Source: Anaerolineae bacterium (lineage in GTDB: Bacteria > Chloroflexota > Anaerolineae > Aggregatilineales > J027). Taken from it: a stretch of DNA of 64,000 nucleotides. The notes beneath the pieces are model-generated. The model had not been told where the DNA came from, made no database searches, and saw nothing but the letters and a program-made list of their open reading frames with translations. Location: the NCBI GenBank assembly GCA_019913005.1, contig JAIOHL010000124.1, forward strand, positions 31,107-95,106, given 5' to 3'. Shown in pieces: positions 4,915 through 46,295 of this stretch. A program made the translations under genes and the position numbers. Each line of letters starts with the position of its first letter. The first letter of the stretch is position 1.

Positions 4915-6216
4915 ATGACCGACCAATCTGTCCTGCTCGTTGAAGTCCCCCCACCTATTCCGGCATCCAGTCGCAAGATTTTGGCGGCGCTGGACAATGC
5001 ATGGCGACGTTTTAATGCCTTTGATGAAGCCTCAAAAAAGCTCAAAACACGGTACAAGCGGGTGCGGTGGAGCATCATTTTGATCAGTTTCATTACCACC
5101 TGTGCCGCTGTGGCTGATGCCCGCTTCAGCCGAGACGATGAAGGGCTTAAAATTTTTATGGGTGTGCTGTTGGTCATCTTGCCCCTTTTGAGTGCCGCCG
5201 TTTTGACCTATGCTGCTCGTTTTGAGGCAGGCAATGGTTGGGTGGGTTTCCGAGTTGCCGCTGAAACCATCAAATTGAGCATCTATGAACTTCGACTCAA
5301 GCGTTATCTCGATCAAGTCACCCTAGATGATCTGGAAAAGCTGGCAAAGGTGATTGAAAAAACGGATGAACAGCTTGAGGGCATGGGAGTCAGCACCCCG
5401 ATTGAAATCAACTTAATTGATAACAGCGAGGGCAAAGAATCAAAACAATTTGCCAAGCCCAATCCCTATGCTACTGACCACTCTGAAGATGATGGCTATA
5501 GCCCATTGGCACTCGATGAGTATTTGCGGATGCGGGTGCTGCCGCAAGCCGAATGGTATAACCGTCGGGCTGTCGCAGATTTCAAAAAAACCCGTCAGTG
5601 GCGAGCCATCATTTTGTTTGTGGGGGTGGTTGGCCCAGCCCTTGCTGCGATGGGGGTAGGGTATTTGGTGGCGGTGACGGTGGCTTTGGTGAATGGCCTT
5701 TTAGCGTACATCGGGCTGCAACAATATGAACAAAATTATGGGATTTATAGCAAGACGGCCCGTCAATTAGAGAACTTAGTCAACCAGATTGAACCCAAAA
5801 TGGACAATTTAACCCCGCCTGAAATTTTGGACTGGGTTCGCAAATTTGAAACCGTTTTTGGCAGTGAGCGCGAAATGTGGCAATTAACCGTGCTGCGAGG
5901 ACAAAGCGCCACCGAAGAAGCCCTAACTCAATTGGTAAATTCGCGTACCAGCGTGCTGCAAAACAGCGATTTGGGCAAATTAGTAGGAGGGCAAGGTGGT
6001 TTTACAGTTAGTCAAGGCTCGGTAGCGACCACTGAACGGGTTTCCGTATCACGGGTAACTACCTATGGGCCAGCGGCTGAACCAGCAGGTTATGTCACGC
6101 CGCAAGTTCCGACCAGCTATCCGGGAACGTCTGCCGGGGCCGTGCCGCCTGTTGAATCTACTGGAGAGGACGAACCGCCCTATCCGCCCAGCTATCCGAT
6201 GTATCCGCCGGGATGA
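4915..6216 (+). CDS. Tandem DUF4231/SLATT-like 2TM-domain protein with a low-complexity P/Y-rich tail
   Basis: Two repeats of amphipathic helix plus TM hairpin plus W/Y-R-x-x-A-E-like helix: (WRRFNAFDEASKKLK...WVGFRVAAETIK) and (YLRMRVLPQAEWYNRRA...YGIYSKTARQLE...FETVF). Confidence 0.7.
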   Translation: MTDQSVLLVEVPPPIPASSRKILAALDNAWRRFNAFDEASKKLKTRYKRVRWSIILISFITTCAAVADARFSRDDEGLKIFMGVLLVILPLLSAAVLTYAARFEAGNGWVGFRVAAETIKLSIYELRLKRYLDQVTLDDLEKLAKVIEKTDEQLEGMGVSTPIEINLIDNSEGKESKQFAKPNPYATDHSEDDGYSPLALDEYLRMRVLPQAEWYNRRAVADFKKTRQWRAIILFVGVVGPALAAMGVGYLVAVTVALVNGLLAYIGLQQYEQNYGIYSKTARQLENLVNQIEPKMDNLTPPEILDWVRKFETVFGSEREMWQLTVLRGQSATEEALTQLVNSRTSVLQNSDLGKLVGGQGGFTVSQGSVATTERVSVSRVTTYGPAAEPAGYVTPQVPTSYPGTSAGAVPPVESTGEDEPPYPPSYPMYPPG

Positions 6217-9460: not shown

Positions 9461-10585
9461 CTAATGATCGTCGTGATCTAACAAATCCTCAATCACACGC
9501 AAATCCTGTGTGGCGAATTTATCTTTGGCGATGAGTTCTTGAAGTTTGCGAACTTCTTGCGTCGAGATTTTGCTGTTGCGGGGGTTAAAGACATGATTAA
9601 AGGCCACCCGATAAAGCCGCACGCGCACTAGACGGGGTAGATATTCGGTGGGACTGACATCAGGGGTGATATGGCCGGTAGGTAACAAAATGCTGGCTAA
9701 CAAAATCGTCGCGCCCCACCATTGAATAGTGGTGAACCGTTCGCCCAAAAAAATGAACGACAACGAAATTGAGACCGCCATCTCTAAAATGACCAAGAGG
9801 GTGGTACGAACGCTCCCCAGACCTTTGACTCCTATAAACATCGTCAGGCGGGAAAGGGCGGTTGTGGCGGCAAGACCTAAAATTGCCCACCATGCGTCAA
9901 TATCACCGCTGGTCGGAGCATCAGGGAACAGAGGCAGATTGTAGGCTAAACGGGCTACTGCAACCACCACCGCCATTGTCGTCAGCACATAAAAAGCGAC
10001 GGTTTGGGCAGGCATGTCGTAGAGGGCACGCTGGCTCATGACCACCGTCCCAGCAAACAAGAGGGCATTCCCCATCATTAGGCCAATGCCAAGCCAATTA
10101 GTTTCACCAGCGACTCCACCCGCAATCAACAATATGCCCAGCATGGCAATCCCGGTACGCAGTATGATGCGCCAACTTAACTGCTGACCGCTGATTCGGG
10201 TCAAAATCATCACAAAGACCAGATAGAGGGCGTTAATTAATTGGGCCGTTGAAGCGTTTAACAGAGACAGTCCGTTATAGTACATCAACGAACCGATGCC
10301 GTTGACCGAGCCTATAGCGATGCAGTTCATTAAACCGAGGGGGTAGATATAAAGATATTGCCTAGCAAAAAGGCGGTACACCAACCACAACAACACCGCG
10401 GCCAACACCGTGCGGACGGCTGCAACGGTAAAGGGGTCAGCGCCGTTATGCAGGGCTATTTTGCCAAATACCGGATTCATCCCCAAGAAAATGGGGGTAA
10501 GTAGGGCGGCGACCAGTCCTGACTGTTTTTCAAGCCGTTTCAAATTCATCAGTCCAGACTGTTTTTCAAACCATCTTCGCTTCAC
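9461..10585 (-). CDS. EamA/DMT-family exporter with a ~70-aa soluble C-terminal extension
   Basis: Ten predicted TMs in two EamA-like repeats; hydrophilic tail YLPRLVRVRL...DHDDH. Alternative start at 10549. Confidence 0.85.
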   Translation of the reverse strand: MKRRWFEKQSGLMNLKRLEKQSGLVAALLTPIFLGMNPVFGKIALHNGADPFTVAAVRTVLAAVLLWLVYRLFARQYLYIYPLGLMNCIAIGSVNGIGSLMYYNGLSLLNASTAQLINALYLVFVMILTRISGQQLSWRIILRTGIAMLGILLIAGGVAGETNWLGIGLMMGNALLFAGTVVMSQRALYDMPAQTVAFYVLTTMAVVVAVARLAYNLPLFPDAPTSGDIDAWWAILGLAATTALSRLTMFIGVKGLGSVRTTLLVILEMAVSISLSFIFLGERFTTIQWWGATILLASILLPTGHITPDVSPTEYLPRLVRVRLYRVAFNHVFNPRNSKISTQEVRKLQELIAKDKFATQDLRVIEDLLDHDDH

Positions 10586-10593: not shown

Positions 10594-11880
10594 TTATTGC
10601 GCGGGAGTCACATCCACAGGGACGGGCACGCGATTGGTCAGCGGAATTTCGATATGAAAGGTGCTGCCGGGCATTTTTTCAACGTCCTGACCCTGACTTT
10701 CAACGTGGATTTTACCTCCGTGTGCCTCGATGATACTTTTACAAATGGATAGCCCTAGCCCCAACCCACCTCCACGAAAGGCGGTTTTGCTGGTGGAATG
10801 GTGCTCGGTTTTTTCAAAGGAATAGAAACTTTCAAAGATACGGTGCTGTTCTTCAACTGGAATCCCAATACCCGAATCGTGAACGGTGATTTTGACCACT
10901 TCGGGGGTCTCGACATGATTGATCGAGACCTTACCCCCATCAGGCGTGAACTTAATGGCATTGCCAATGATATTTGCCAGCGCCAAACGCATCAGTTCAA
11001 AATCTACCATCAGCTTGGTGGGCCACCCGTCGCGGCTAAATTCGACATTCACATTGCGCTGCTGGGCAGCCTGCTTAAAGTCATCCAGCGCATACTGGAT
11101 AATTTCGCCCAAATTCGATTGGGCCAGATTCAATTCAATTTGCCCGGTGGTCAAGCGGTAAACGGTAAAAATCTCATTAATGACATCATGTAGGCGCTCA
11201 ACCGACTCGACCAGTGCATCCACATACGCCCCAATTTCAGGGCTGGACTGAGTTAATAGCTGAATGGGTGGCGCGGTCTGCAATAAACGCCCATAGCCAT
11301 AAATGATGGTCAGCGGCGTGCGGAGTTCATGCGCAGTACGTTTGATAAAGTCGTCTTTGATGACATCCAGTTGGCGTAGTTTGGAATTCGCCGCTTCCAG
11401 ATCACGCAGGCGCTTTTCAAGATGTTCGGTCAGTTCTTTGTGATAATTGCGGCGGGCCTCTTCGGGGTTGGCAACTTTGGGTAAATCTTTGCCCCCCTCC
11501 AAATAAAAGGCGATACGCTTGGGGAAGGAGGCTACATCAATGGGTTTCGCCATGAAACCGGATACGCCGGAAATAAGCGTCATGGCCCGCTGCTTATCGT
11601 CGGTTTGGGCAGTCAGGGCCACAATGGGCATATCGCGGAACTGTTCAAAAGCGCGGAGGCGGGTCGTTACTTCACGTCCGCTCATATCCGGCAAATTGAT
11701 GTCCATTAAGATGAGGTCGGGTTTGTGCTCCAATGCCGCATCAATGCCCTTTAACCCGGTCTCGGCGATAATGATGGTGTAGCCTTTTGGCTGCAAAATA
11801 CGCTTCACCAACGTCGCATTCGAGGGGTTGTCCTCGATATAGAGAATTTTCTTCGGCTTTGGAGCAGGCGATAGTGTCAT
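10594..11880 (-). CDS. Receiver-first hybrid histidine kinase (REC-HisKA-HATPase)
   Basis: ILYIEDN...LMDINLP...ALTA...KP receiver; HELRTP H-box, NAIKFT, DSGIGI and GLGLGL boxes. Confidence 0.93.
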   Translation of the reverse strand: MTLSPAPKPKKILYIEDNPSNATLVKRILQPKGYTIIIAETGLKGIDAALEHKPDLILMDINLPDMSGREVTTRLRAFEQFRDMPIVALTAQTDDKQRAMTLISGVSGFMAKPIDVASFPKRIAFYLEGGKDLPKVANPEEARRNYHKELTEHLEKRLRDLEAANSKLRQLDVIKDDFIKRTAHELRTPLTIIYGYGRLLQTAPPIQLLTQSSPEIGAYVDALVESVERLHDVINEIFTVYRLTTGQIELNLAQSNLGEIIQYALDDFKQAAQQRNVNVEFSRDGWPTKLMVDFELMRLALANIIGNAIKFTPDGGKVSINHVETPEVVKITVHDSGIGIPVEEQHRIFESFYSFEKTEHHSTSKTAFRGGGLGLGLSICKSIIEAHGGKIHVESQGQDVEKMPGSTFHIEIPLTNRVPVPVDVTPAQ

Positions 11881-11901: not shown

Positions 11902-13569
11902 CTAATTTAGGCTGTCAATAATTCGTTGCAATAATTCTTCGTTTAGGAATGACCCCTTTTGCAAAAATGATTCTACCTGTCCGGCAAGGCGGCTGCGTTC
12001 GACAGGGGTCAGTTCTTTGGCGCTGAGTACAATCACCGGAATGTCCCGTAATTCAGGGGTGGCCTTTAAACGCTCGACCACCTGAAAGCCATCCATTTCC
12101 GGCATCATCAAATCCGTCACAATCAAATCGGGCTTTTCTTGCATAGCGATTTCAAGCCCTTCCCGTCCATTTTGGGCAATGGTGACTTCATGGCCTGCCC
12201 CGCCCTCCAAAATTCGGCGAATCAAACGGGCCGAATCTTCATTGTCTTCAATCACCAACACACGCCGCGCATTGGATGTGCTGACCTTGCCAACCTCAGT
12301 TAAGAGACGATCCGTCGGCAGCGATGGAGTACGACTGGCGTTCGAAATATCCACTTGTTTGGCCCAACGCTCACCCAAGATTTCCTTCTCAACCGGGAAG
12401 GTATGGCCCGTGCAGTTAAACACCACTACGTCGTTGGGTTTGATGACCCCGCGCCGCACCAATTTGACTAATCCAGCAAAACCGACAGCGGTGGCTGGCT
12501 CAACCGAAATACCATCATTCCGCGCCAAAATGCGGGTGGCTTCAAAGGCTTCCTCGTCGGTGGCACTTTCGGCGGCCCCGCCATACTGCTGCATCAATTC
12601 ATACAGTAGTTGATAGGCCCGCCCGGGATTGCCGGTGCTCAGAGTCGCAATGACCGTTTCAGGGTTTTCAACGGGCACGGCCACCGACATCCCATTGTTA
12701 AAAGCATCTACCATCGGGGCACATCCGGTAGATTGGATAATCCCTAGCGAAGGCACCTTGTCTACCAAACCAAGCTCTAGCAATTCTTCAAAGCCCTTTG
12801 CAGCACCGATTGGCCCCATACCGCCGCTGACGGGTTGAATAAACCAATCCGGGGCACGCCAACCTAATTCTTCGGCAATTTCATAGGCGATGGTTTTCAT
12901 ACTTTCCATCGCGGCAATATTTTTGATGCCCTGATCGTAATGAATACCTTGACTTTGGGCAAAACGGACAGCGATTTCTTTGGTTTGGTCATAAGTCCCG
13001 GTAACGTTGACCACCTCCGTCCCATACAAGGCTACCTCTCGAATTTTATCACTAGGCACGAGGTTAGGGAAAAAAGCCCAAAGTTTAATCGCGGCGCGGG
13101 CAGCATAGGCCGAATAAGCAATGGCGACATTCCCCGTACTAGCGACCACAGCTTCTTGAATACCCAATTCCGCCATCGCCGAAATCGCAACTGAGGCTTG
13201 GCGGTCTTTAAAGGAATTGGTCGGGCCTTGACGCTCGTCTTTGATATAGAGATATTTCAGCCCCAGCATCGCGCCAACATTTTTGGCATGAATGAGGGGG
13301 GTATCGCCTTCACCCAACGAGACGATATTTTCGGTATGCTTAATCGGCAGCAGTTCATGATAGCGCCACATGCCACGCTTACGAGTAATAATTTTTTCGC
13401 CCCAGTTGTCACGGCGCAGGGCGTCCAAATCATAACGGGCATAGAGAATATCGTCCCCACAGGTCGGGCAACGTTTGAGCGGACGTTCATAGACGCTGTG
13501 CCAGCCACAGTTTTTACATTCAAGGTGAATCGGTTTCACCTGTGTCGAAGAAAGTTGATCTACGGTCAC
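11902..13569 (-). CDS. Threonine-synthase-like PLP enzyme (fold type II) fused to a C-terminal receiver domain
   Basis: N-terminal CxxC/CxxC ribbon, SLGEGDTPL, TNSFKDR (PLP Lys121), ASTGNV, EPATA and NCTGH. C-terminal VLVIEDN...VTDLMMP...LSA...LQK receiver. GTG start overlaps the TGA of the upstream kinase. Confidence 0.9.
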   Translation of the reverse strand: MTVDQLSSTQVKPIHLECKNCGWHSVYERPLKRCPTCGDDILYARYDLDALRRDNWGEKIITRKRGMWRYHELLPIKHTENIVSLGEGDTPLIHAKNVGAMLGLKYLYIKDERQGPTNSFKDRQASVAISAMAELGIQEAVVASTGNVAIAYSAYAARAAIKLWAFFPNLVPSDKIREVALYGTEVVNVTGTYDQTKEIAVRFAQSQGIHYDQGIKNIAAMESMKTIAYEIAEELGWRAPDWFIQPVSGGMGPIGAAKGFEELLELGLVDKVPSLGIIQSTGCAPMVDAFNNGMSVAVPVENPETVIATLSTGNPGRAYQLLYELMQQYGGAAESATDEEAFEATRILARNDGISVEPATAVGFAGLVKLVRRGVIKPNDVVVFNCTGHTFPVEKEILGERWAKQVDISNASRTPSLPTDRLLTEVGKVSTSNARRVLVIEDNEDSARLIRRILEGGAGHEVTIAQNGREGLEIAMQEKPDLIVTDLMMPEMDGFQVVERLKATPELRDIPVIVLSAKELTPVERSRLAGQVESFLQKGSFLNEELLQRIIDSLN

Positions 13570-16500
13570 GATGCTAAATTCGCCTCAGTTTCTCGGACGG
13601 CCTTGATAAGATCGGTCTCGACAAACGGTTTGACCAAATGGTTGGTCGCCCCAAGCCGATAGCTGTGCTGGGTATCGGTACTGATACTGCATACAATCAC
13701 CGGAATGTGATAGGTCTGATCATTGTCTTTCAGTTTTTCCAACACCTGCCAACCATTCCGATTGGGCATGTTGATGTCAAGCAAAATCATCATGGGGTTA
13801 TGATTGGCAACCATTTCTTCTGCTTCTTCGGGGTTGGTTAGGCCAATGACCTGCCAACCTTCTTTGGTGAGATAACGACGATAGAGATTAATCATGCCCA
13901 ATTCGTCATCAATTGCCAAAATAACCTTCTGACGGGAGGGCTGACGTTCAGCTTTGATTTCATCTACCAAATTATTGAAGTCCGTGCCGAATTCTCTGGT
14001 ATCGGACATCTCCTCTTCGGCAATTTCGGCTGCCGACGGAGGGGGTGGTCCTAGCGGGATGGTAACATAAAAGGTTGAGCCGACCCCCTCTTGGCTTTCC
14101 ACCCATAACCGTCCACCCTGTAACTCTGCCAACGACTGGGACAGTGGCAGACCCAAACCTGTACCCTCAGCGGAACGAGTGGTGGAGTTGTCAATTTGTT
14201 GGAACGCCTCAAAGATCGTATTGAGATATTCCTGTGGAATCCCGATACCCGTATCCCGCACCGCAACGGTAATCATGGGCGGTTCAACGCCGTTTTCAAT
14301 AAAAGCACTGAGAGTAATGCTCCCTTGTTCAGTGAATTTGGCAGCATTAGAAATCAGATTGAATAAGATTTGGCGGGTACGGAATTCATCCCCAAACGCC
14401 TTGTCAATAGACTCTTCAATCTCGGTATGCAGACGAAGATTCTTGTCGCGGGTCAAGCCGATGGCGCTGGACATCACCCCCTTGATGACGGGAGCCAGTT
14501 CGAAGTAATCCAGCGAAAGTTCCATCTTACCCGCTTCGATCTTGGCTTGGTCGAGGATGTCATTCACCAAACCGAGCAGATGTTTCCCGCTGGAATGAAT
14601 AATCTGGATGTCTTGCTTTTGCATGTCATTAATCGGGCCGTCAATGCCCTTCAAAATGACACTTGAGAAGCCGATAATCGAATTCAGCGGGGTGCGGAGT
14701 TCGTGACTCATAGCAGCAAGGAAATTCGTCTTGAGCTGGTCAATTTCACGCAGGCGTTCGTTGGTGCGCTGCAATTCCTCGACCAGCAAGGTGCTTTGAA
14801 CAACCGCCGAGACCGCTGTACTGAGGGCTTGCAGCAAGCGTAGGGTGTCTTCGCCAAACTGGGCCTCGCGTTGGCCTTCCAAGCCCATAACCCCAATCAG
14901 GCTTTCACCACTGGTCATCGGAAGGTAAATCGCGGAACGGGCTGAAACATCCATTGGGGTGTAGGGGCCAAGTTCAAAATTTGGCACGATGATCGGGGCG
15001 CGGGTTTCCGCAACTTGCCCGGCTAGGCCCTCACCAATGGCAACTTTGACAGTGGGTTCAATCGAATGTAGGGTCTGTGAATCGCCCTCTTGGACGGCAA
15101 TCACCATTGCTTGAGCCGCTAACCGATTGCGCCCGACTTCATTGAGGAAAAAGACCACACTGCTCGCGTCCATACGATTTGCCAACACCTGACTGACCGT
15201 TTCCAGCATCACCGAAAGGTTAGGCATGGCGGCGGCGAAGGTGGTGACATCAAACAAGAAGGCCATTTCACCAGCACGCTGCTGGGAGATTTCAAACAAC
15301 TGGGCATTATCAATGGCGACGGCTAGTTGGTCGGCCATTGTAGTCAAAGCCTGCACGTCATCCTCGGTAAACAGACCCGCTTGATTCGACTGCACGTCCA
15401 ATGCGCCCACAACACGGCCTTTCACAACTAGGGGGAAGGCGATTTCAGAGCGTGTATCGGGCAGGTGGGGATTGGGCCGATGGGTTTCACTGAGCGCCGT
15501 ATCCGCTACCAAGACGGGCATACCACGACTGGTGGTTTGCCCAATGACGGAACGTGACCCGACAGGCAGACTGTGATTCAGGCTCAACAATTTTTGCCCC
15601 GCTTCACCTGTCGAAGCACGGAGGATGGCCTTCTGTCCGGCAGCATCCACCATAAAAATCTGAACATGGTCATATTGGAAAGCTTCACGGATGAGGTCTA
15701 CCACGCGCGGGAACAGTTCGTCCAAATTCAAAATAGAGGTCGCAGCACGGCTCACCTGTGCCGAGGTTGTTAGTTGACGGGCACGCAGTTCGGTTTGTTC
15801 AAAGAGACGCTTGTTTTCCAACTGCACGGCGGCTAAGTCAGCCAGTGACTGGTAGATGCGAATTTCGCGTTCTTGATGCTCACGGGTCTCGGCTGAGGCC
15901 AACAAAATTGCGCCGATTAAGCGGGTGGGGGTGCGCAAGGGTACGATCACAAACGAACTAATACGCAAGGCCTTATAACCCAAGCGGGCATCGGTTGAGA
16001 TCGCGGGATCGCGGGAAACATCATCCACCCACTTCATCCTAACGGTTGCGAGATCGTTCCAGAAAGGTAGTTGATTGCGCGTAAACCGAAGGCCTTGCAA
16101 GTCAACCAGTTGGTCACGTCCCCATGACGTGGCGATTTCGAGTTCGGCATTTTCGCTGTTCCAATCTTCGGAACGCAGACTAAGCAGAAATACCTTGTCC
16201 ACAAGCGCATCGGCGGCATAGTCAATCACTGACTGTACAATTTCATCACGACTTTCGGCGTTGGCAATGGCACGGCTGGCTTGATAGAGGACACCAGTTT
16301 CTTCCAATGATTCCTGCGTCTGCCTAAACAGCAGGTCATTTTCAACCAAATAGGCTGCTGCGTCGGCCAATGTCGTAATGAATTGATATTCATCGGGCGT
16401 GAAAATATGAACTTCGCGGAAGCCCATCGAAATACGCCCGACAACGCGACCACCGACGGACAGCGGTACACTTAGAATAGACTGATAGGGCGTTTGGATG

Positions 16501-19500
16501 GCCCGTAATTGACGGACGATCTGATTCATCGTCGCTTCGGACTCGTCATCAATGGACTGGATGTAATATTCATCACGGGTCATTGGGTCAAAATCGCCAA
16601 TCGGCTCACCGGTTTTTGGCACAAGCGGCAGACTGGGTATTTCAGCAAATAAGGGGTCTTTGCTCCATTCCAAACCAAAATAGAAAGAGGCAATATCTTC
16701 TTGCGTGCGCTGTAACAAAACATCTACCCGTTCAGGATTGAAATTCAATAGCTCCATGCGGATGGTATCCAGCATTTCTTCAAGGTCACGCGCCTCGGCA
16801 ATGCGGCGACTGCTGCGATAGAGATTGGCAACCGCACGCAGGGCATCTTGGGTACTTTGGAATAGGAAAATACTATCCAATGCGAGGGCCGTCTGGTCAG
16901 CGATGGCCGTCATAAAACGCCGATCTTCGGCCATAAAGGAATGTTTATCGAAATAGACCACCGCAAACCAACCAAGAGTACGACCTCTGGCCCGCAACGG
17001 AATTGAAGCAAACGACTGGATACCGCTTTGAATGGCCTGCAAGCGCATATTAAATTCAAGGGTTTGGTCAAGAAAACCGATGCTCTGATCAATGTTAGAG
17101 ACAATAATCGGCTCTTCGCTCATCAACAAATTACGTGGTAGCGCCAGCAAATCTACATCAGTAACCCCCGCATAACTTTCCGGCCATGCCGCCACCACAC
17201 GGGTTTGCAGCGGCCCACGATCCATGCCTTCTTGCAAAACCACATAGACCTGATTGGGCATCAAAGTCAGCAACTGATTGACTAGCACATTGGCGAGGTC
17301 ATTAACGCTGGAGGCGGAGGTAATTTGGCGATTGGCCTCATACAGCGCGGTGGTTTCGCTTAGGCTATCCTGCAATGCTTTTTCGAGTTCGCGCAGTTCG
17401 GTAATTTCTTGGAAGACCGCCACTACCGACGAAATCTCACCGCCCTCATTGCGAATGGGCGCGACGTTTGCGAGCAAGTCCACCCGGCGACCATCCGGGT
17501 ATTCCACCGAGATGTTTTCTGCACTGACGATGGCCCCCTCACGCAAAGCAATGGTGGTGGGGAATTCTTCAGACGGGTAAAGCTCGTCCGTGCCCAGTTT
17601 ATAAATCGGGAAGGTGTTTGATGAAAACAGAGCTTTATTGACCCCGCCGCCAAAAAGATCAACAGCGCGTTGATTGGAAAGCAGGCTGTTGCCACGCGGG
17701 GCTAACAAGAGCACGCCGGCAGGCATGGCTTCAAGGGTAGATTGCAGTGTCTGGCGTTGATTTTCAATGGCCGCAAAGAGCCGCTGATTTTCGGTAGCGA
17801 TGGCAAGCTGGCTGGCAAGCGTGGTTGCCAATTGAATATCGCGTTCATCCAAATCGTGCTGTGATGCACGCCGACCAATTAAGAGCGCCCCGATCACCAC
17901 TTCATTGCTGGTCATGACCGGAACGGCTAGATGCTTGCCATATACGATATGTTCTTGGGCAGAAAGCTTGCCGAACGTCGGGTGAACCCGTTCATTGACC
18001 AAAACGACTTGGCGAATTAACACGGATTCAGTAACGGCATTACGGTCACGCTTCAGGTTCATACGTTGCGGCATAAAGGGGGTGTCGCCTGATTCTTGGG
18101 GTGAAAAGGCCGCTACCTGACGGAGCGATTGCCCATCCGTATCCAAAACCCCAAACCACCAGCGGCCAAAATCACCGGGGTCAGACACGGCGCGGAACAG
18201 GCGGTTTACGTCAGACTCAAAATCCGTGCTGATACGACTAGCCAACTGACCTGCGTCGGCCAATGCCAATGCTCGCCGCGCTTCTTTTTGGACTTCTTCT
18301 AGCAGGCGGCGATTTTCAACCGCGATTGCCAATTGGTCACCAACTGCCGAGGTAAAACTCATGTAATTTTCGCTAAAGGCACGCGGCGTTTGACTACTGC
18401 ACACCAAAACCCCAAACCATTTTGCACCCGTAACCAGCGGCATAAGATAGAGGGTTTCGGCATTAAACGTCCTCAGCAGGTAGCCCAAGATTTGGTCAGT
18501 GTCCTCAAGATCGTTCAGTTCATGGGCATGAATGAGCATGGGGCTACGGGGGGCAAGTTCAAATTGGGCCGAAAGCCCCTGTTGTAATAAAGGTACACGC
18601 TGACCAGTCTCCCAAGCGGAGATACTGCCGATACGCGACCACAGATGCGCGACAATGACATTTGGAGCCAAATGGGACGGGAAAGGATCGGCCAACAAAA
18701 TCGCTAGGCTATCAAGATTTTCATAATAGCCTAACTGCTCAGTGATAAGGGCATAAACGGCTTCAATATTAAGTTCAGCAGCACTACTGACCGTGCGGGC
18801 CATTTCATAGAGACGCTGCGATTCGCCAAGCGCCATCTGGGTTTGCTGGAATAGGCGGGCATTGTCTACCGCGAGCGCCACACGTACCGCAACCGCATCA
18901 ATCAAAGCCTGTTCATCTTTGCTCAACTGGGCACGCTGCGGTGCTTTGGTCTCGATCTGCCCAATTGGTTTGCCACCCACTGAAATTTGAGTGCTGTATA
19001 CGGAATGTTCATCACTTGGTGGAGGCAGCAGATTGCCGTTTTCTGGTGTATCAGGTTGAATCGGCTTGACACCGATCAGGTCATATTGATAACCCAACTG
19101 CACATCATCGGGTTGGATACGGGCAAATTCTTCCCATGCTTTTTCGGTTAAGCGCTGATTGAGCAAGGCAACTTCATCCACTCGCTGTTCAAGTTCTTCA
19201 ATCAGGCGGGCATTGTTGATCGCAATCGCCAATTGGTCAGCCAACACTTGGAAAATTTCAATATCTTCCGGGCTATAGGCTTCGGGGCGGATACTTTGAA
19301 TATCCAACGCACCGATCACTCGGTCTTCAACCTTGAGGGGCAGGGCCATTTCTGAGCGGGTATTGGGCAATTCCACATTGGGCTGCCAAGGAACTTCAGT
19401 GGAAGTGGTGTCGCCGGCGATGACCGTGACACCCAGCGCGGTCACACGGCCAATCACGGAATTTGATCCAACCGCCAGTTTATGTTTTTTGGCAAGAAGG

Positions 19501-20972
19501 CGCTGTCCGGCCTCGCCTGTGCTGGCAACCAAGACAGCATACTCGCCAAGATCATCCATTAAGAAAACTTGGGAGTGGTAGTAATCGAATTGTTCGATAA
19601 TGCGGTTAATGGTGCGATTCAAAACAAGACTTTGGTCGCGCAATCCGGTAATTTCGCGGCTGATTTCCGCAACAAGGTCAAGGTCACGGATACGGGCTTG
19701 TACCCTCGCCTGCAAATCATCCACCAACGTTTGGGTGCGCTCGGTAACATTATTAAACAAGGTGGCAACCCGACCAAATTCGTTGGATTCGACAGCGGGG
19801 AGTCGGACAGTCAAATCACCGCGATTGACCCGCGCCAAGCCATCCGCAATGGTTTCAAAACGGCGAGAAATCTGAGTGGTCTCATACCACAACAAGATAC
19901 CTGTGATACCGAGCAAGCCGAGAAATATGGCCGCGAATATCCCTAGTGCCAAGCGGGTTGGGCCAGCGACTTCACTGGCTTCCATAGACACGATCACCGT
20001 CCATACTGGCTGACTGGTCGTATCCGATAGGCTGGAAAAGGGTCGTGTAATAGAAGTGGCCGCCAAATAATCGGTGTTATTTTGGCGATACTCAATGGCT
20101 TCTTGAGGGAAGTCGGTTAGCAACGTATTTGCCAATGAACCCGTTAGTTGTTCGCCAACCGAGGTCGAGCGACCATAGAGTAAATTTGGCTCGGAGGCCG
20201 CAATATAATAACCATCCTCATCTACCACATGAATAATTTCATCACTGCTTTCGCGTTCTGTAATGCCCCGAACAAGCCAATCTATGTCCATATCTATGGC
20301 GAGAAGGGCAATTACGGTATTTGTTTCGTCCAAGATAGGAGTCGTCAACGTCACGATTTGCTGGAAGGGTTCTGTTGGACGGCCCGTGGCATCTCGCACC
20401 ACCACCACATCCGAAATCCAGAACTGTCCTGTACGGCGCAATTGCAGACCCGACTGAACAAATTCTTCGCTGCGGCGATTTCTGAGATCGGAGATTGACA
20501 CAATCTCGATATTGTCGGTTCGCCCCGAACGCTCCAAAGCCACCAATTCACGCCCACTGATGCCGACCAATCGGATCGCGTGATAGAGGGGCCGACCAAT
20601 GAGCAGTTCCTCAAATCTCCGCGTGACAGATTCGCGGGCGAGATTGTCTACCTCGCCACTGGTGCTGCGGCGATCCAGTACATCAACAATGCTGGGGGTA
20701 ATATAATTGGTAGCAAGGTTATCGAAGTCGGCGGCTACGATTTCAAACGGAACGCTCAACTGCTCACCATTTTCATCCGCATGTTCGCTCAAGTCGTCGT
20801 TGACATTGGTACGCACGACGTTGTTGATCTGGGTAGTGACAGCAATCAATACTAAGAAAGACATCACCACAAACGCTGTAATAATTATCAGCAGTTGTGT
20901 GCGGAAGGGACGGTTAATGAACCAACGAAATGGCCCAAAGCTAGAATGTGGCTGTATTTTTCGGTCTTGCAT
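13566..20972 (-). CDS. Giant membrane-bound hybrid histidine kinase: TM-Cache-TM-HAMP-~9 GAF (one degenerate)-PAS-HisKA-HATPase-REC
   Basis: Repeated LA(I/V)A(I/V)(E/D)NxxL GAF ends; PAS (LEAMPAGV...FQEIT) lying within the GAF array; SHELRTPLNS, NLISNAAKFT, DTGIGI and GTGLGL boxes; terminal receiver AIDD...LLDINMP...KP. Confidence 0.93.
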   Translation of the reverse strand: MQDRKIQPHSSFGPFRWFINRPFRTQLLIIITAFVVMSFLVLIAVTTQINNVVRTNVNDDLSEHADENGEQLSVPFEIVAADFDNLATNYITPSIVDVLDRRSTSGEVDNLARESVTRRFEELLIGRPLYHAIRLVGISGRELVALERSGRTDNIEIVSISDLRNRRSEEFVQSGLQLRRTGQFWISDVVVVRDATGRPTEPFQQIVTLTTPILDETNTVIALLAIDMDIDWLVRGITERESSDEIIHVVDEDGYYIAASEPNLLYGRSTSVGEQLTGSLANTLLTDFPQEAIEYRQNNTDYLAATSITRPFSSLSDTTSQPVWTVIVSMEASEVAGPTRLALGIFAAIFLGLLGITGILLWYETTQISRRFETIADGLARVNRGDLTVRLPAVESNEFGRVATLFNNVTERTQTLVDDLQARVQARIRDLDLVAEISREITGLRDQSLVLNRTINRIIEQFDYYHSQVFLMDDLGEYAVLVASTGEAGQRLLAKKHKLAVGSNSVIGRVTALGVTVIAGDTTSTEVPWQPNVELPNTRSEMALPLKVEDRVIGALDIQSIRPEAYSPEDIEIFQVLADQLAIAINNARLIEELEQRVDEVALLNQRLTEKAWEEFARIQPDDVQLGYQYDLIGVKPIQPDTPENGNLLPPPSDEHSVYSTQISVGGKPIGQIETKAPQRAQLSKDEQALIDAVAVRVALAVDNARLFQQTQMALGESQRLYEMARTVSSAAELNIEAVYALITEQLGYYENLDSLAILLADPFPSHLAPNVIVAHLWSRIGSISAWETGQRVPLLQQGLSAQFELAPRSPMLIHAHELNDLEDTDQILGYLLRTFNAETLYLMPLVTGAKWFGVLVCSSQTPRAFSENYMSFTSAVGDQLAIAVENRRLLEEVQKEARRALALADAGQLASRISTDFESDVNRLFRAVSDPGDFGRWWFGVLDTDGQSLRQVAAFSPQESGDTPFMPQRMNLKRDRNAVTESVLIRQVVLVNERVHPTFGKLSAQEHIVYGKHLAVPVMTSNEVVIGALLIGRRASQHDLDERDIQLATTLASQLAIATENQRLFAAIENQRQTLQSTLEAMPAGVLLLAPRGNSLLSNQRAVDLFGGGVNKALFSSNTFPIYKLGTDELYPSEEFPTTIALREGAIVSAENISVEYPDGRRVDLLANVAPIRNEGGEISSVVAVFQEITELRELEKALQDSLSETTALYEANRQITSASSVNDLANVLVNQLLTLMPNQVYVVLQEGMDRGPLQTRVVAAWPESYAGVTDVDLLALPRNLLMSEEPIIVSNIDQSIGFLDQTLEFNMRLQAIQSGIQSFASIPLRARGRTLGWFAVVYFDKHSFMAEDRRFMTAIADQTALALDSIFLFQSTQDALRAVANLYRSSRRIAEARDLEEMLDTIRMELLNFNPERVDVLLQRTQEDIASFYFGLEWSKDPLFAEIPSLPLVPKTGEPIGDFDPMTRDEYYIQSIDDESEATMNQIVRQLRAIQTPYQSILSVPLSVGGRVVGRISMGFREVHIFTPDEYQFITTLADAAAYLVENDLLFRQTQESLEETGVLYQASRAIANAESRDEIVQSVIDYAADALVDKVFLLSLRSEDWNSENAELEIATSWGRDQLVDLQGLRFTRNQLPFWNDLATVRMKWVDDVSRDPAISTDARLGYKALRISSFVIVPLRTPTRLIGAILLASAETREHQEREIRIYQSLADLAAVQLENKRLFEQTELRARQLTTSAQVSRAATSILNLDELFPRVVDLIREAFQYDHVQIFMVDAAGQKAILRASTGEAGQKLLSLNHSLPVGSRSVIGQTTSRGMPVLVADTALSETHRPNPHLPDTRSEIAFPLVVKGRVVGALDVQSNQAGLFTEDDVQALTTMADQLAVAIDNAQLFEISQQRAGEMAFLFDVTTFAAAMPNLSVMLETVSQVLANRMDASSVVFFLNEVGRNRLAAQAMVIAVQEGDSQTLHSIEPTVKVAIGEGLAGQVAETRAPIIVPNFELGPYTPMDVSARSAIYLPMTSGESLIGVMGLEGQREAQFGEDTLRLLQALSTAVSAVVQSTLLVEELQRTNERLREIDQLKTNFLAAMSHELRTPLNSIIGFSSVILKGIDGPINDMQKQDIQIIHSSGKHLLGLVNDILDQAKIEAGKMELSLDYFELAPVIKGVMSSAIGLTRDKNLRLHTEIEESIDKAFGDEFRTRQILFNLISNAAKFTEQGSITLSAFIENGVEPPMITVAVRDTGIGIPQEYLNTIFEAFQQIDNSTTRSAEGTGLGLPLSQSLAELQGGRLWVESQEGVGSTFYVTIPLGPPPPSAAEIAEEEMSDTREFGTDFNNLVDEIKAERQPSRQKVILAIDDELGMINLYRRYLTKEGWQVIGLTNPEEAEEMVANHNPMMILLDINMPNRNGWQVLEKLKDNDQTYHIPVIVCSISTDTQHSYRLGATNHLVKPFVETDLIKAVRETEANLAS

Positions 20973-21001: not shown

Positions 21002-23194
21002 TTATTGGGAGGTCAATGGGTCAATGTTTAACGAAATGGTGGTTTCTGGCGTACCGAGTGCAAGGCCCAACTCCTTGACCGCCACCTGCAAAATCTGTCG
21101 AAAATCGGTTTGAATGCTCAGTTTTTGCGAAATCTCATTGAGCAGCCGTTCACGCTCAATTAACTGCTGGCTTTGTTCAAACAACCGCGCATTTTCCGCC
21201 GCAATTGCAAACCGCTCCACCAATTCTTCTGCCGTTTGCAGCATCCCTTGATTAAATTGGGCTACCTCAACGGTACATTCAATCGCGCCGATCACCTCAC
21301 CACGCAAAACAACTGGCAAGGCAAAGGCAATCTGATTTTCGGTTACTTTGGCTGTCACCGGTTTGCGGCGTTGGATGGCCTGCTTTTGCAAAAACGTCCA
21401 ATCTTTTAACGCGGCGGGCTGTCCTCCGGTGCTATAGGCAAGGTCGTGATGCTGCGTGAAATATTCCTGCCAACCTTCACGTGCCGCCTGCGGGCTTTGA
21501 ACATCGCCATTCGCACCATTTAAGGATGACTCGCCGACTAACAGACCAAACAAGCCAGTGGCGAGTTCGGTGGTCAGCGCCAAGAAAAAGCTAAAGTCGC
21601 GTTCCGAAAATGCCTCTAGCGCAACGCTGTGCAAATCTAAGATGCCGATTAGTTGCTCACGTGCAAACATGGGCACGGCCAGTTCGGTGCGGGTGTGTTT
21701 AAAAACATCATGTTTGGTATAGATCGGTGCTTTTTCATAATCCACGACCAATACCGGACGATTTAGCATAGCGGCGTGGCCTATTGGGGTCTGATTATCT
21801 AATCCAACACGATAACCCTGTACAAATAGGCGGCGACCTTGTTCACCCGTGCCAACCCGCATGACCGCGCTGTTGGTGGCCTCGTCTATTAGAAATACTT
21901 GAGCATAATCTACGTTAGGATAGTGTTGGCGCACCGAGCGCACAAATTCTTCGAGCAAAACATTCGCTTCAGAGACGGTTCGCAGCAAACCAGCCGTCTC
22001 CGTAAATAGGCCGACCTGCTTGGATAGCCGCGTTTGGCGGGCTTCGGCATCGGCGACGCTATTTTGAAAGACAGTGGTCAGGTCTACAAACGTATTATGC
22101 ACCTGCCCAATTTCATCGGAGCGTTTGATAGTCGAGAAATCAGGGTCACGTTCACTTAGGGCAAATTCGACCATCATGCGGTTTAGGCGGGACAACGGCG
22201 GGACAATTTGTTGATAGGTCAGCAGTAACCACACGGCACTTGGAACAAGTAGCAGCACAATCGCCCCACCTATCACCAAAGGGATATAAGTGCTTACGAG
22301 TGGGTTGACCACTTCGGAAAAACGCATTTCCGTGACCAGAATCCACGATGTACCCCCCACGCGCTGATACGTACCTATCACATCTGCCCGCAGTAAGGGG
22401 CTTTCATAGCGTTGGGGGTCAAGCCGGGCACTGTTGTCGGACAAAGCCGGATGCCGACGGTAATTCTGGAAAACCAAGACCCCGCGTTCGCTGGTTACAA
22501 GCAACTGCCCATTCTCATCCAACAAGAAAAGGTCGGCGTTGGGTAAATTTTGGAGTTCGGGTTGTTCACCAAAACCGCGCAGGATGTTCGGTAGATTGTC
22601 CGTCGCCTCGCTGTCGAGATTTTGGGTCAGCACCACATAGCCAATCTGCTGATTGTCTCCCTGAATCGGCACAATAATATCAAGCAGGGGTTCATTAAAT
22701 GGGCCGGGATAAATTGAGCCGATGGTCGTATCGGTGATCTTGCGACTGATAATTTCCAACGACTTTTGATTGACCTCGATATTGGCTTGGCCTGCCTGTG
22801 CTACGGTAATCAGACTTGGATGCATCAGGCGAATACGCACAAGAGATAAATTGCTCGACCAAATACGGTCAAGGGTCTGATTTGCTTGTTGAATCGCGGA
22901 GGGGTTGGTACCGTTGATGTCAAGGGCGGCCTGATAGAGTGCAACATCGTATGGCTGAACAGCTAGGTTGGTGGACGCCGTCGTCAGGTCATCAAGCCGC
23001 TGTGCAAAAGTTTCGGCCTTAACATCAGTAATAATTTCAACAGTGTCTTCCGCTTGATTGGTCTGGGCTTGAAAGCGCAACGTTAGGGCAATTATGCCAA
23101 TAATAATCAGGGGAATCAAAATGGTCAGCAGGAAACCGAGGCTAAATTTCGCCCGCAGAGGCCAATCAAAAGGTCGGGGCAGATTACGTTCCAC
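21002..23194 (-). CDS. Kinase-less membrane sensor: TM-Cache-like-TM-HAMP-GAF-degenerate GAF-stub
   Basis: Two TMs, HAMP (PLSRL...DEIGQV), GAF (GTGEQGRRL...TRTELAVP) and FAIAAENARLF. No H-box or ATPase motifs. Confidence 0.85.
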   Translation of the reverse strand: MERNLPRPFDWPLRAKFSLGFLLTILIPLIIIGIIALTLRFQAQTNQAEDTVEIITDVKAETFAQRLDDLTTASTNLAVQPYDVALYQAALDINGTNPSAIQQANQTLDRIWSSNLSLVRIRLMHPSLITVAQAGQANIEVNQKSLEIISRKITDTTIGSIYPGPFNEPLLDIIVPIQGDNQQIGYVVLTQNLDSEATDNLPNILRGFGEQPELQNLPNADLFLLDENGQLLVTSERGVLVFQNYRRHPALSDNSARLDPQRYESPLLRADVIGTYQRVGGTSWILVTEMRFSEVVNPLVSTYIPLVIGGAIVLLLVPSAVWLLLTYQQIVPPLSRLNRMMVEFALSERDPDFSTIKRSDEIGQVHNTFVDLTTVFQNSVADAEARQTRLSKQVGLFTETAGLLRTVSEANVLLEEFVRSVRQHYPNVDYAQVFLIDEATNSAVMRVGTGEQGRRLFVQGYRVGLDNQTPIGHAAMLNRPVLVVDYEKAPIYTKHDVFKHTRTELAVPMFAREQLIGILDLHSVALEAFSERDFSFFLALTTELATGLFGLLVGESSLNGANGDVQSPQAAREGWQEYFTQHHDLAYSTGGQPAALKDWTFLQKQAIQRRKPVTAKVTENQIAFALPVVLRGEVIGAIECTVEVAQFNQGMLQTAEELVERFAIAAENARLFEQSQQLIERERLLNEISQKLSIQTDFRQILQVAVKELGLALGTPETTISLNIDPLTSQ

Positions 23195-23195
23195 G

Positions 23196-24878
23196 TTAAT
23201 TCACCTCTACTTCAACACCGGGTTGTGCTTCAATCTCGGTGGGTACACCCAGTCGGACAAGTGTCTGGTCAGTGCCAAGCGAACGATTAAACACTTGCGA
23301 GGTCACATTCACCAAACGGGCCAGATTACGGGCATCCTGCAATTCTGCCGCGACCTGACTCACCAGTTGTTCACGCACCGCCACCCGCTGGACTTCATCA
23401 AATAGACGCATATTTTCAAGGGCCAACGCCAAACGGTTGGTCACTTCTTTGACAAATTCGACTGTTTGGTTTGACCATCCCTCACCACTGTTTTCAAAAA
23501 TAACTTCCCCAATCGTTTGAGAACCAACCGTCAGCGGGACCATCATGCGCTGACCACTGCCTGTTTGATCTAATTGAGGAGCATCTGATAGGGGGGTCGT
23601 CGCAGGCTGCCAGCGGCGCAAGGTGCCTTTATCCCACTGAAAAGCGGTAAGACGTCCACTTTGAGACAGATATGACCCCCACGCCACCCCAACATTTTCT
23701 TGGCTCATACGGCTGACTTCGGCCTGATAGCGCAGTGCTGAGACATTGGCCGCGTCCATTTCTTGGCGAAGTTGTTCAAAATCTGTCCCCAATGTTTCAC
23801 GTTGGAGGGCCGTCGCCAGTTGATAAGCCGCCGCTTGATAAAGCTCGACCTCCCCCTGCGTCGGAATGACATTACTCGAAAGCTGCAAATCCAGCACTCC
23901 GATACACTGACCGTCGCTGGTCAAAAGTGGGAAAGCCAATTCACTGTTGGTCGAAGGCAAAAATGCCTCACGCTGCGGTACGGACACATTCCGATTAAGA
24001 TTCACCGCCGATTTGCGGCGATAGGCTTGGGCAGGGCCGCTTGGGTTATCAAGGTCAATACGATAGGCCTCACGCAACAAACGCTGACCACTAAGGCCAG
24101 TCGCGGCAATTAGTACAAGGCGAGGTGTTTCGCCCTGTAAACGATAGATGAGCACATGGTCAACTTTTAGTTCGACGCGCATGAGGTCGGCAACGGCTTG
24201 GAGGGATTGCGAGACTAAGCGTTTTTCATTTAGCTCCGCACTAACCTTTGCCAAGCCGACAATGGACTGTTGAACGTCATCATAACGCTTGACGAACTGG
24301 GCAATATAGTCGAGAAATTGATAGATCAACACCGCTGCAAGTATCAATGAGGGATAAAAAACGGTGGCGATATTGCCCGCTAATTCACGTGAGGGAATCG
24401 GTGATTCAAATGAGTTTGAACTGGTCTGAAAGGCTAAGGTGGTAATTGCTACCCCGGCAAAAAATAGCGTCGCCAACACCAACCCGCGTACACCAATTAG
24501 CAAACTCGCGGTGAGGATGGGCACAATAAACAGCAGAATGATGATGCTATCGGCACGATAATCCAGCACAAAAATCGTAAAATAGGTGATGGCAATCGCC
24601 AGCGTCATGGCGTAAGCCGCAGTGGACAAGCGACCAATCTGCACCAACCACCCAATGCCAATCATCGCAACCGTAACAGGAAGTAACAGCAAGGTATAGC
24701 CGGTTGGGATGGCTGCATTATCCGCAAGGTCTTGGACGGCCAAAACCAAAATGGTGGCAGTGAGCAAAATAGCGATTACCACACTCAACAGCAAAATCGT
24801 GCGGGCGCGACGCAGATCGTCAGGGGATGTGTAGGGGTATCGAACTTGGAATAGGTTGGAGATAAAATTTATACGCAT
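23196..24878 (-). CDS. Kinase-less multi-TM GAF protein
   Basis: About 6 N-terminal TMs, GAF (ATGLSGQRLL...TNSELAFP) and LALALENMRLF. TAATG overlap with the upstream gene supports the start at 24878. Confidence 0.82.
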   Translation of the reverse strand: MRINFISNLFQVRYPYTSPDDLRRARTILLLSVVIAILLTATILVLAVQDLADNAAIPTGYTLLLLPVTVAMIGIGWLVQIGRLSTAAYAMTLAIAITYFTIFVLDYRADSIIILLFIVPILTASLLIGVRGLVLATLFFAGVAITTLAFQTSSNSFESPIPSRELAGNIATVFYPSLILAAVLIYQFLDYIAQFVKRYDDVQQSIVGLAKVSAELNEKRLVSQSLQAVADLMRVELKVDHVLIYRLQGETPRLVLIAATGLSGQRLLREAYRIDLDNPSGPAQAYRRKSAVNLNRNVSVPQREAFLPSTNSELAFPLLTSDGQCIGVLDLQLSSNVIPTQGEVELYQAAAYQLATALQRETLGTDFEQLRQEMDAANVSALRYQAEVSRMSQENVGVAWGSYLSQSGRLTAFQWDKGTLRRWQPATTPLSDAPQLDQTGSGQRMMVPLTVGSQTIGEVIFENSGEGWSNQTVEFVKEVTNRLALALENMRLFDEVQRVAVREQLVSQVAAELQDARNLARLVNVTSQVFNRSLGTDQTLVRLGVPTEIEAQPGVEVEVN

Positions 24879-25987
24879 TACATTTCTACCCATTCATCAT
24901 CATTGGCTGGCATGTGGACGGGCGAAGACTCCTCTAGAGACTCATCGACCACGGACGGCACAAGCCGAATGAACCCCCGATCAGCCCCCAAAATACGGCT
25001 TAATTCAGCCAGCGATGTGCTTAAAATGGTTTCGACATCAGAAATTCCCTGAAACTTAGCCGTGATGGAATTGATAAACGATTGATAGCGGGCGTTACGC
25101 TGGGCTTCTTCAAATAATTGGGCATTTTGGATGCTGACAGCAATTTGGGCTGCAATTGCGGTCAAAATCTCAATCTCGGCTGCCGTAAAATGATGGACTT
25201 GAGTCAGTGCATCCAACCCCAGTGAACCTAAAAATTGATTTTGGACAAACAGTGGCAAAATCATGACCGACTTGATGCCAAAAGCCATCAGGGTCTCGCG
25301 GTTTGGCCCCAATTCCTCAACCGCCTCCGCCACACTGTCAATAACAAACGGGGCAAGCGTTTCTTTTTGTTTTTCATAGACCACATACCCTGCTAATTGA
25401 ATTTTTTGTCCAATCGCGCCGGTAATAGGATATTCCGCCAAAACTGTGCCATAGTCGGGGGCATGATCGTTAATCACAATCCCCACATGGTCAATCCCCT
25501 GTAGCGCCTCAACAATACTTTGACAGGCGGCCACCAGCACCGCTTCACTGGCAAGCTCGGCGCTAACTCGTTGGGCCACCTGAGAAAGCCCCTCATAGAG
25601 TTCAAGGCGTTCACTCAAAAACGAATCTGTATGTGTCCGGCTGGTAATGGTTTGTTGAAGTTGCCACTGTTGGGTTACGATTTGCGCCCATAATTGGCCT
25701 GCTTCCCAAAAAGATTCTGGATGCTGTCCGGAGAGGGTTAGCTCTAGGGTATAGCCACTCATAGGGAGAGACCAAATTTCACCATTGGAGCGAACCGAGC
25801 GAGTGGCAGATAATAGGGAGGATGTTTGAGAAATCAAACGGTGGCTAGTGAAGGACGGCCATTCGGTTTCAGCCGCCCGGAAAGCAGTTTCGATAAACTG
25901 TTCCAGACTGCTCACCTGCGCTGCTTGGGACGGTAAATCGCGGATAATGGTTCTGAGAGAAGCCAAATAAGCCAGCGCATCTTGCAT
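24878..25987 (-). CDS. Soluble GAF-domain protein without an output domain
   Basis: GAF (GIDHVGIVI...ILPLFVQNQFLGSL...IAVSIQNAQLF) followed by the same terminal stub as its neighbours. Confidence 0.82.
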   Translation of the reverse strand: MQDALAYLASLRTIIRDLPSQAAQVSSLEQFIETAFRAAETEWPSFTSHRLISQTSSLLSATRSVRSNGEIWSLPMSGYTLELTLSGQHPESFWEAGQLWAQIVTQQWQLQQTITSRTHTDSFLSERLELYEGLSQVAQRVSAELASEAVLVAACQSIVEALQGIDHVGIVINDHAPDYGTVLAEYPITGAIGQKIQLAGYVVYEKQKETLAPFVIDSVAEAVEELGPNRETLMAFGIKSVMILPLFVQNQFLGSLGLDALTQVHHFTAAEIEILTAIAAQIAVSIQNAQLFEEAQRNARYQSFINSITAKFQGISDVETILSTSLAELSRILGADRGFIRLVPSVVDESLEESSPVHMPANDDEWVEM

Positions 25988-35783: not shown

Positions 35784-35868
35784 CCCGATTTTGGCTACCT
35801 GTAAGATATACTTTTTCCCATGCGTCAACTCTGCAATAAACAATAGTAATTTATGGCGAGGAAATCAA

Positions 35869-44235: not shown

Positions 44236-44498
44236 GGGGCGGCTCTCCAAATAAGTTCTACAAATAAACATTATCAGCACCTCTAAGTTTAAAACTGATT
44301 CAACCTTTTTGCCAACCACAATCTTGAATTCACCCCCTAAATTCAGGGAGGATAGATAAGAATTCGGCAAGAATTTTTGACAAATCGGCGACCATCTGGA
44401 TAATAATTACCCCATGCTCTGGCGAGTTTTACACGCCAAAGCGCCGTATCCGATTAAGATAAACCTTAAACGTTCCATGCGTGGAGGTAATTTAGATT

Positions 44499-46229: not shown

Positions 46230-46260
46230 ACAGGCTCATCTGTCCATTTAAACTAAACCT

Positions 46261-46295
46261 ACAGGGGCGGGGTTTGCAATCTCGCCCCTGTTTTG
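46261..46295 (+). terminator. Hairpin after the binding-protein gene (partial terminator or mRNA stabiliser)
   Basis: ACAGGGGCG/CGCCCCTGT stem followed by TTT. Confidence 0.7.

Follow-up and report, generated by a model that had tools for sequence, protein, structure and literature searches.

The closest described relatives of the gene considered here are the short-class threonine synthases (ThrC) of Thermus (PDB ID: 1UIM and 1V7C), Aquifex (2ZSJ), Mycobacterium tuberculosis (2D1F) and Bacillus subtilis (6CGQ). The gene lies in a 64,000-nucleotide stretch of DNA from an Anaerolineae bacterium (GenBank assembly GCA_019913005.1, contig JAIOHL010000124.1, positions 31,107 to 95,106), referred to below as the window. 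Its 555-residue product, ThrC-REC (11902..13569, minus strand), shares with these enzymes the fold, the SFKDR motif, the S-T-G-N loop, the E222-x-x-K-T segment and the T/S-G-H with which the domain ends. Unlike the short-class enzymes, ThrC-REC carries a Zn ribbon and a response-regulator receiver (REC), has replacements at five positions, and is encoded in a signalling operon rather than with hom and thrB. The Zn ribbon is common to the threonine synthases described by the models NF006050 and TIGR00260, whose members with canonical motifs fall in another clade. What is directly observed at this locus is an intact cofactor site, a rebuilt and invariant pocket, an intact receiver and a conserved operon. 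The gene product is probably a response regulator with a ThrC-fold pyridoxal 5'-phosphate (PLP) output domain that has been re-specialised away from O-phosphohomoserine. The favoured reading, to which a probability of roughly 0.6 is assigned, is that ThrC-REC is a phosphorylation-gated PLP enzyme that forms the catalytic output of a two-component system, with an EamA permease moving an amino-acid-like product or substrate.

Fusion of a receiver to a catalytic domain, with the cognate kinase encoded adjacently, is likewise found in the CheB methylesterase, the GGDEF proteins PleD and WspR, the HD-GYP protein RpfG and PP2C-type regulators. In contrast to these enzymatic response regulators, the output domain of ThrC-REC is a PLP-dependent amino-acid enzyme and the receiver is C-terminal to it. 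Cysteate synthase (TIGR03844; CapA2, PDB ID: 9K3C) provides a precedent for neofunctionalisation as a ThrC paralog with a new reaction, but it is 23% identical to ThrC-REC, lacks a receiver and has kept a phospho-ester as its substrate. Identity of ThrC-REC with cysteate synthase itself was considered and rejected (123 bits against the TIGR03844 cutoff of 324.9). The plant threonine synthases (PDB ID: 1E5X and 2C2B) also have the ThrC fold and are controlled allosterically, by way of an additional segment at the N terminus, with S-adenosylmethionine as the activator; here control is exerted by a metabolite and not by phosphorylation, and the plant enzyme keeps all of the phosphate ligands. Full-text literature searches returned no report of a ThrC-receiver fusion, of the ThrC-REC clade or of a PLP enzyme as a response-regulator output.

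Domain architecture and fold of ThrC-REC

From the N to the C terminus, ThrC-REC consists of a Zn ribbon, a ThrC-fold PLP domain and a receiver, all encoded, with the operon described below, on the minus strand. The Zn ribbon (residues 14-46; 13432..13530) is recognised by conserved Cys residues and by strands in the AlphaFold2 model, and C18, C21, C34 and C37 are invariant or nearly so across the family. The fold-type II PLP domain (residues 83-388; 12406..13323) is assigned by Pfam (PALP, 1.1e-67, 229 bits), by matches to ThrC structures in the PDB and by Foldseek. The receiver (residues 434-552; 11914..12270) is assigned by Pfam (Response_reg, residues 437-550, 3e-21, 76.1 bits against a cutoff of 30.2) and by its conserved hallmark residues. 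It is tethered by a flexible-looking linker of ~40 residues (residues 391-433; 12271..12399), the least conserved segment of the protein, which is modelled with low confidence (predicted local distance difference test score, pLDDT, below 50 at residues 392-418).

The AlphaFold2 model has a mean pLDDT of 77 and confirms the fold. When it was used as a Foldseek query, ThrC structures ranked at the top (TM score of 0.76, normalised to the target), with Ser/Thr dehydratases and TrpB lower. The closest solved relatives are threonine synthases (1e-51 to 1e-33, 33-36% identity). A Ser/Thr dehydratase identity was rejected, as the IlvA, TdcB and EutB models gave about 50-71 bits, whereas their cutoffs are 326-421, and the corresponding structures rank below all ThrCs in Foldseek.

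The substrate pocket differs from that of canonical threonine synthases

To compare the active site with that of authentic enzymes, ThrC-REC was aligned with five solved threonine synthases (Aquifex 2zsj, Thermus 1uim, M. tuberculosis 2d1f, B. subtilis 6cgq and Arabidopsis 1e5x) and with 121 receiver-fused relatives (62-94% identity), which constitute the family alignment. The cofactor-site residues are present: the Schiff-base lysine K121 of SFKDR (codon at 13207..13209) and S144-T145-G146-N147 are invariant in 121/121 relatives, and a direct check of the numbering upholds the initial annotation of this gene, which had called both intact. In HMMER alignments, all five solved enzymes keep ASTG(N/D)T, NS(V/L)-N(P/S)xR(I/L)EGQKT and GN(A/L)GN. 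At these three motifs ThrC-REC instead reads ASTGNV, QGIKNIAAMESMKT and PVSGGMG (SGGMGP), just as the annotation had it. The first change places Val at the end of the S144-T145-G146-N147-V148 loop (13126..13140), where canonical enzymes have Thr (Thermus T88). The second is a rebuilt loop and helix start (Q213-G-I-K-N-I-A-A-M-E-S-M-K-T226; 12892..12933) that replaces the canonical N-S-V-N-P-x-R-x-E-G-Q-K-T, and the third is a glycine-rich loop (V247-S-G-G-M-G-P253; 12811..12831), invariant in 120-121/121 relatives, that replaces V-G-N-A-G-N.

Thermus residues T88, N154, S155, R160 and N188 are kept by all five solved enzymes (5/5) and at none of the five positions in ThrC-REC (0/5). Their counterparts are V148, Q213, G214, A220 and either G249 (MAFFT) or G250 (phmmer), respectively, with phmmer and MAFFT agreeing on Q213 and G214. 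The residue mapping proposed initially is correct for V148 and A220, and for G249 when MAFFT is followed, whereas its assignments of N154 to G214 and S155 to I215 were off by one. With Thermus and M. tuberculosis among the aligned enzymes, its central point, that the phosphate-ligand positions are not conserved in ThrC-REC, is borne out. These five Thermus residues are taken here to be the ligands of the O-phosphohomoserine phosphate, on the basis of the 1V7C analogue complex, the Thermus ThrC structure reportedly described by Omi et al. in 2003.

The replacement residues V148, G214, A219-A220, E222-S223-M224-K225 and V247-S-G-G-M-G-P253 are themselves invariant among the fused relatives. A query-anchored comparison with the solved canonical enzymes found 59 shared invariant positions, the cofactor site included, and 34 at which the invariant residue of canonical ThrCs has given way to a different one, itself invariant in the ThrC-REC family. 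The switched positions include G to Q124 and M to A125, beside the catalytic lysine, and further clusters in the Asn loop (148/150/152) and at 212-224, 250-253, 307-312 and 355-362. Because the replacement residues are invariant across 121 proteins, neither chance nor decay accounts for this pattern; as judged from the alignments, the substrate pocket is rebuilt under strong purifying selection. The initial description of the pocket as erased is accordingly replaced by one of remodelling, and the pattern is, at the level of sequence, what is expected of a functional active site with a new specialisation.

Conserved basic residues are found at or near the old phosphate site: R113, R317 and K216 (K in 118 relatives, R in 3). 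Position 213 is R in 109/121 members and Q in five, the window protein among them. Because the family keeps or gains such residues around the old site, the substrate may be anionic, and the non-phosphorylated substrate proposed earlier is only one possibility.

Distribution and phylogeny

When one genome for each GTDB species was scanned with a sequence pattern, relatives of ThrC-REC were detected in at least 591 species. The best 80 of these are nearly all metagenome-assembled genomes (MAGs) of Anaerolineae, Aggregatilineales or Phototrophicales; one is a Pleurocapsa (cyanobacterial) contig and one is labelled Bacteroidetes. Copies 99% identical to the window protein are present in the MAGs DTUCFX7 and CFX5. 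In an exhaustive search of 1.84 billion representatives, the signature of the clade was V/I/A148 combined with an SGG.GP loop.

In a neighbor-joining tree, all receiver-fused representatives form one clade that includes forms with two receivers (708-715 residues), and a rare unfused cyanobacterial form of 420 residues is nested within it. The unfused sister lineages share V/I/A148 and SGG.GP and retain Arg at 220/221, so the pocket appears to have changed in steps, and its last basic ligand to have disappeared at about the time of fusion. Zn-ribbon threonine synthases with canonical motifs (P0159, P0167 and P0179) lie in a different clade, near the Thermus root. Two of the unfused sister lineages are encoded in a NeuB/glycosyltransferase/DegT cluster and a radical-SAM-SPASM/TauE cluster, respectively, and not in threonine operons. 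A query with the unfused relative P0121 returned no model-organism ortholog, and the cluster names of the unfused relatives gave no pointer to taxonomy or function.

Members on cyanobacterial contigs are found in L087 (a Pleurocapsa minor MAG) and L006 (GCA_943367755, beside a phycobilisome linker gene); the cyanobacterial members are fused at 56% identity and unfused at 60% identity. The presence of both fused and unfused members on such contigs suggests lateral transfer between Anaerolineae and cyanobacteria. The forms with two tandem receivers after the PLP domain (P0124 and P0125, loci L007 and L089) follow a giant GAF kinase gene and are themselves followed by single-domain receivers and a GNAT protein of ~290 residues instead of EamA. 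Another regulatory fusion in the superfamily is represented by ThrC-like proteins of 611-627 residues (P0171, P0176, P0212, P0248, P0249, P0251 and P0258), which have G(V/A/G)FKDR and ASTGNMA motifs (ASSGNMA in P0249) and keep Arg at the R160 position. P0171, the only one of the seven that was scanned, has a C-terminal LeuA allosteric/dimerisation domain.

The receiver and the signalling operon

Mean identity to the window protein across the family is 75% for the PLP domain, 60% for the receiver, 57% for the Zn ribbon and 49% for the linker. The receiver hallmarks E441, D442, D486, T/S516 and K538 are conserved in 120-121/121 relatives, which extends the initial finding that E441/D442 and D486 (codon at 12112..12114) are intact. 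ThrC-REC thus has the acidic pair, phospho-acceptor Asp, T/S and Lys of a phosphorylatable receiver, and candidate cognate kinases are encoded on either side of it, as an overlapping upstream hybrid kinase and a downstream REC-kinase.

The operon contains seven same-strand genes separated by overlaps or gaps of at most 30 nt, in the order three GAF proteins, giant hybrid kinase, ThrC-REC, REC-kinase and EamA permease, with a total of three receivers and two kinases. The giant hybrid histidine kinase (13566..20972; 2468 residues) has the architecture TM-dCache-TM-HAMP-~8 GAF-PAS-HisKA-HATPase-REC (TM, transmembrane segment), and its TGA stop codon overlaps the GTG start codon of ThrC-REC (GTGA). 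The REC-HisKA-HATPase kinase (10594..11880; 428 residues, Pfam) begins 21 nt downstream of ThrC-REC, and the last gene encodes an EamA/DMT-family permease (9461..10585; 374 residues, Pfam EamA 6.8e-28). Contiguous with the giant kinase gene are those of three GAF proteins that lack a kinase output (21002..25987), with TM-dCache-TM-GAF (730 residues), multi-TM-GAF (565 residues) and GAF (369 residues) architectures; these may be accessory sensors for the giant kinase. An Rfam scan detected no riboswitch, and promoter and terminator scans gave signal at the level of shuffled sequence. The initial suggestion of phosphorylation gating agrees with this locus at the level of anatomy, namely the intact receiver and the hybrid-kinase stop codon that overlaps the start codon.

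The neighbourhood was compared across the 80 best-matching species loci, with only those having enough flanking sequence counted in the denominators. EamA lies downstream of ThrC-REC in 52/66 loci, the REC-kinase immediately downstream in 50/66 and a giant-kinase homolog immediately upstream in 49/62. All-against-all clustering of the open reading frames of the 80 loci recovered the same partners plus a GAF-protein cluster in 41/80, with the next family present in only 13 loci; no conserved gene for precursor supply, downstream metabolism or catabolism was found among these clusters. A separate fused subfamily of 54% identity, in which EamA is directly downstream and the kinases are arranged differently, is counted as independent support. 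That EamA is the tightest conserved partner points to a small molecule as the product or substrate of the module.

The presence of three receivers and two kinases, with the REC-kinase directly downstream, raises the alternative that the PLP domain is a ligand sensor, or pseudo-enzyme, in which an amino-acid external aldimine alters (de)phosphorylation of the receiver and so feeds a relay through the REC-kinase. PLP-fold pseudo-enzyme sensors have a precedent in GabR/MocR-type regulators; the C-terminal position of the receiver is that seen in hybrid kinases and CheV rather than one N-terminal to an output domain, and a sensor would also need the conserved PLP site and pocket. The PLP domain is, however, more conserved than the receiver, including at the positions beside the catalytic lysine, the tightest conserved partner is a permease, and stand-alone enzymes without a receiver are found, rarely within the family itself and also in its sister lineages. 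The sensor alternative, already raised in the initial annotation, is therefore considered distinctly unlikely.

The EamA gene also permits a variant of the favoured reading with the direction reversed, in which ThrC-REC is a signal-induced catabolic or detoxifying enzyme of the deaminase, dehydratase or racemase type, and EamA imports its compound or expels a toxic product. The SGGMG loop is similar to GGGG(M/L), the PLP-phosphate loop found in serine racemase and in Ser/Thr dehydratases. Weak secondary NCBIfam matches to dehydratases point the same way, although these models fall far under their cutoffs, as does the extracytoplasmic dCache sensor of the giant kinase, although a simple regex did not find in this dCache the R-x-W-[YF] portion of the motif for amino-acid binding. 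Furthermore, the Thermus and B. subtilis ThrCs deaminate threonine in vitro and a cyanobacterial Zn-ribbon ThrC also deaminates threonine, which places elimination chemistry within reach of the ThrC fold (PMC12172450, 2025). Set against this catabolic role is the lack of conserved catabolic genes nearby. EamA/DME-family carriers are, in addition, mostly exporters. On balance, the reversed direction is regarded as unlikely.

Proposed mechanism and its weighing against a threonine synthase function

In the favoured reading, the giant membrane kinase would sense a signal, outside the cytoplasm by means of dCache and inside it by means of the GAF/PAS domains, and would phosphorylate D486 of ThrC-REC. 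The phosphorylated receiver, on its flexible linker, would then switch the PLP domain on or off, either by relief of occlusion or by a change in the dimer. The PLP domain would use an amino acid generally available in the cell to make an amino-acid-like product, which the EamA permease of the operon would export; less likely, EamA would import a compound that ThrC-REC degrades. The REC-kinase would relay the signal to other targets. In a more specific form, offered only tentatively, the module would be a phosphorylation-gated synthase of a signal or allelochemical, with the giant multi-input kinase setting the time at which a common amino acid is converted to a non-proteinogenic one and exported by EamA.

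Several observations weigh against the favoured reading. ThrC-REC passes the TIGR00260 thrC equivalog model (185 bits against 167.1), and its best NCBIfam match, the NF006050 (PRK08197) "threonine synthase" model, which aligns over the full length including the Zn ribbon, misses its cutoff by only 3 bits (299.7 against 303). The conserved K216, R113 and R317, and the R213 of most members, could bind a phosphate ester. Pfam detected no HPt domain among the three proteins that were scanned, so any phosphotransfer route is hypothetical. EamA is missing from ~21% of the loci with sufficient downstream sequence, and these loci have no consistent substitute gene. The tree, finally, carries no support values.

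One alternative is a genuine threonine synthase that is tuned by phosphorylation and in which K216, R213, R113 and R317 bind the phosphate of O-phosphohomoserine instead of the usual ligands. In its favour, the top structural and sequence matches are all ThrCs, the TIGR00260 cutoff is passed, conserved basic residues lie around the former phosphate site and the family is widespread in the class Anaerolineae. Moreover, the cyanobacterial enzyme of the Zn-ribbon type is active on O-phosphohomoserine (PMC12172450). The active-site residues of that enzyme are reported to be comparable to those of the Thermus enzyme, and it is therefore probably outside the ThrC-REC clade (PMC12172450). Against a genuine threonine synthase, all five positions that are invariant in the five solved enzymes are replaced, the window protein has Q rather than R at 213, the canonical Zn-ribbon enzymes form a separate clade and the sister lineages lie in non-threonine clusters. 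The specificity of the ThrC reaction, moreover, reportedly needs a precisely bound product phosphate, as Murakawa et al. are said to have found in 2011.

The genomic context likewise bears on this alternative, as the gene lies in a signalling and transporter operon that is unlinked to hom. The homoserine dehydrogenase gene hom (42090..43121, plus strand) is 28 kb from ThrC-REC. It is not followed by thrB or thrC, and the next gene (43138..44370, opposite strand) is Fe-ADH-type-like. Neither thrB nor a second ThrC homolog is present within the 64-kb window, and in 1.5 Mb of related loci no second thrC was found except a non-canonical DSSGNAG-type paralog in 3 loci. With five ligand positions replaced, a distinct clade and an operon without hom or thrB, there is good support for the statement in the initial annotation that this is no true threonine synthase, and a phosphorylation-tuned threonine synthase is considered very improbable.

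The DSSGNAG-type paralog is a second Zn-ribbon ThrC-like protein of 363-365 residues, encoded 0-1.4 kb beyond EamA in 3/80 loci (L060, 16277..17374; L066, 15883..16980; L070, 13369..14460). It has the motifs GSYKDRG, DSSGNAG, SHAWSPFF and PVGHGG, and the canonical phosphate ligands are absent from it too. Its best model is PRK06450, below cutoff.

Other genes in the window

Elsewhere in the window, a stand-alone SLATT_1 and DUF4231 protein (4915..6216, plus strand) is of the SMODS/SLOG-associated two-transmembrane effector type usual in conflict and defence systems. Its gene lies between cell-wall genes and an unassigned open reading frame for 155 residues, beyond which come pyrH, tsf and rpsB. 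Another protein (35767..36519, plus strand) joins two CDGSH iron-sulfur domains to a divergent 4Fe-4S mono-cluster domain (Fer4_19). An ABC transporter operon of the branched-chain-amino-acid type (44499..51917, plus strand) encodes a binding protein with a C-terminal Fasciclin domain (576 residues) and an unusually long second permease (811 residues). On the minus strand, a cluster at 52006..57377 encodes a DUF5682 protein (927 residues), an AAA_5 MoxR-like ATPase and a VWA/CoxE-like protein, and is followed by two open reading frames without a Pfam match (57352..59160).

Implications

Neither half of ThrC-REC is of a new kind, and databases already list the family, probably under the wrong name, as every named relative is labelled threonine synthase because of its NF006050 and TIGR00260 scores. 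If that label is wrong, metabolic reconstructions that credit hundreds of Anaerolineae genomes with thrC through this gene are unsafe. If the favoured reading is correct, a PLP-dependent amino-acid enzyme would join the list of response-regulator outputs, and the very large multi-GAF kinases of Chloroflexota would have a concrete, assayable output. With its 34 switched invariant positions, the pocket is a natural variation on that of ThrC, held under strong conservation, and as such is a place to seek a new reaction. Should the module prove to be a signal synthase, two-component signalling in filamentous Anaerolineae and some mat cyanobacteria would end in a small molecule outside the cell instead of in transcription. 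ThrC-REC would then catalyse a reaction new to the ThrC fold and would be the first response regulator with a PLP enzyme as its output domain.

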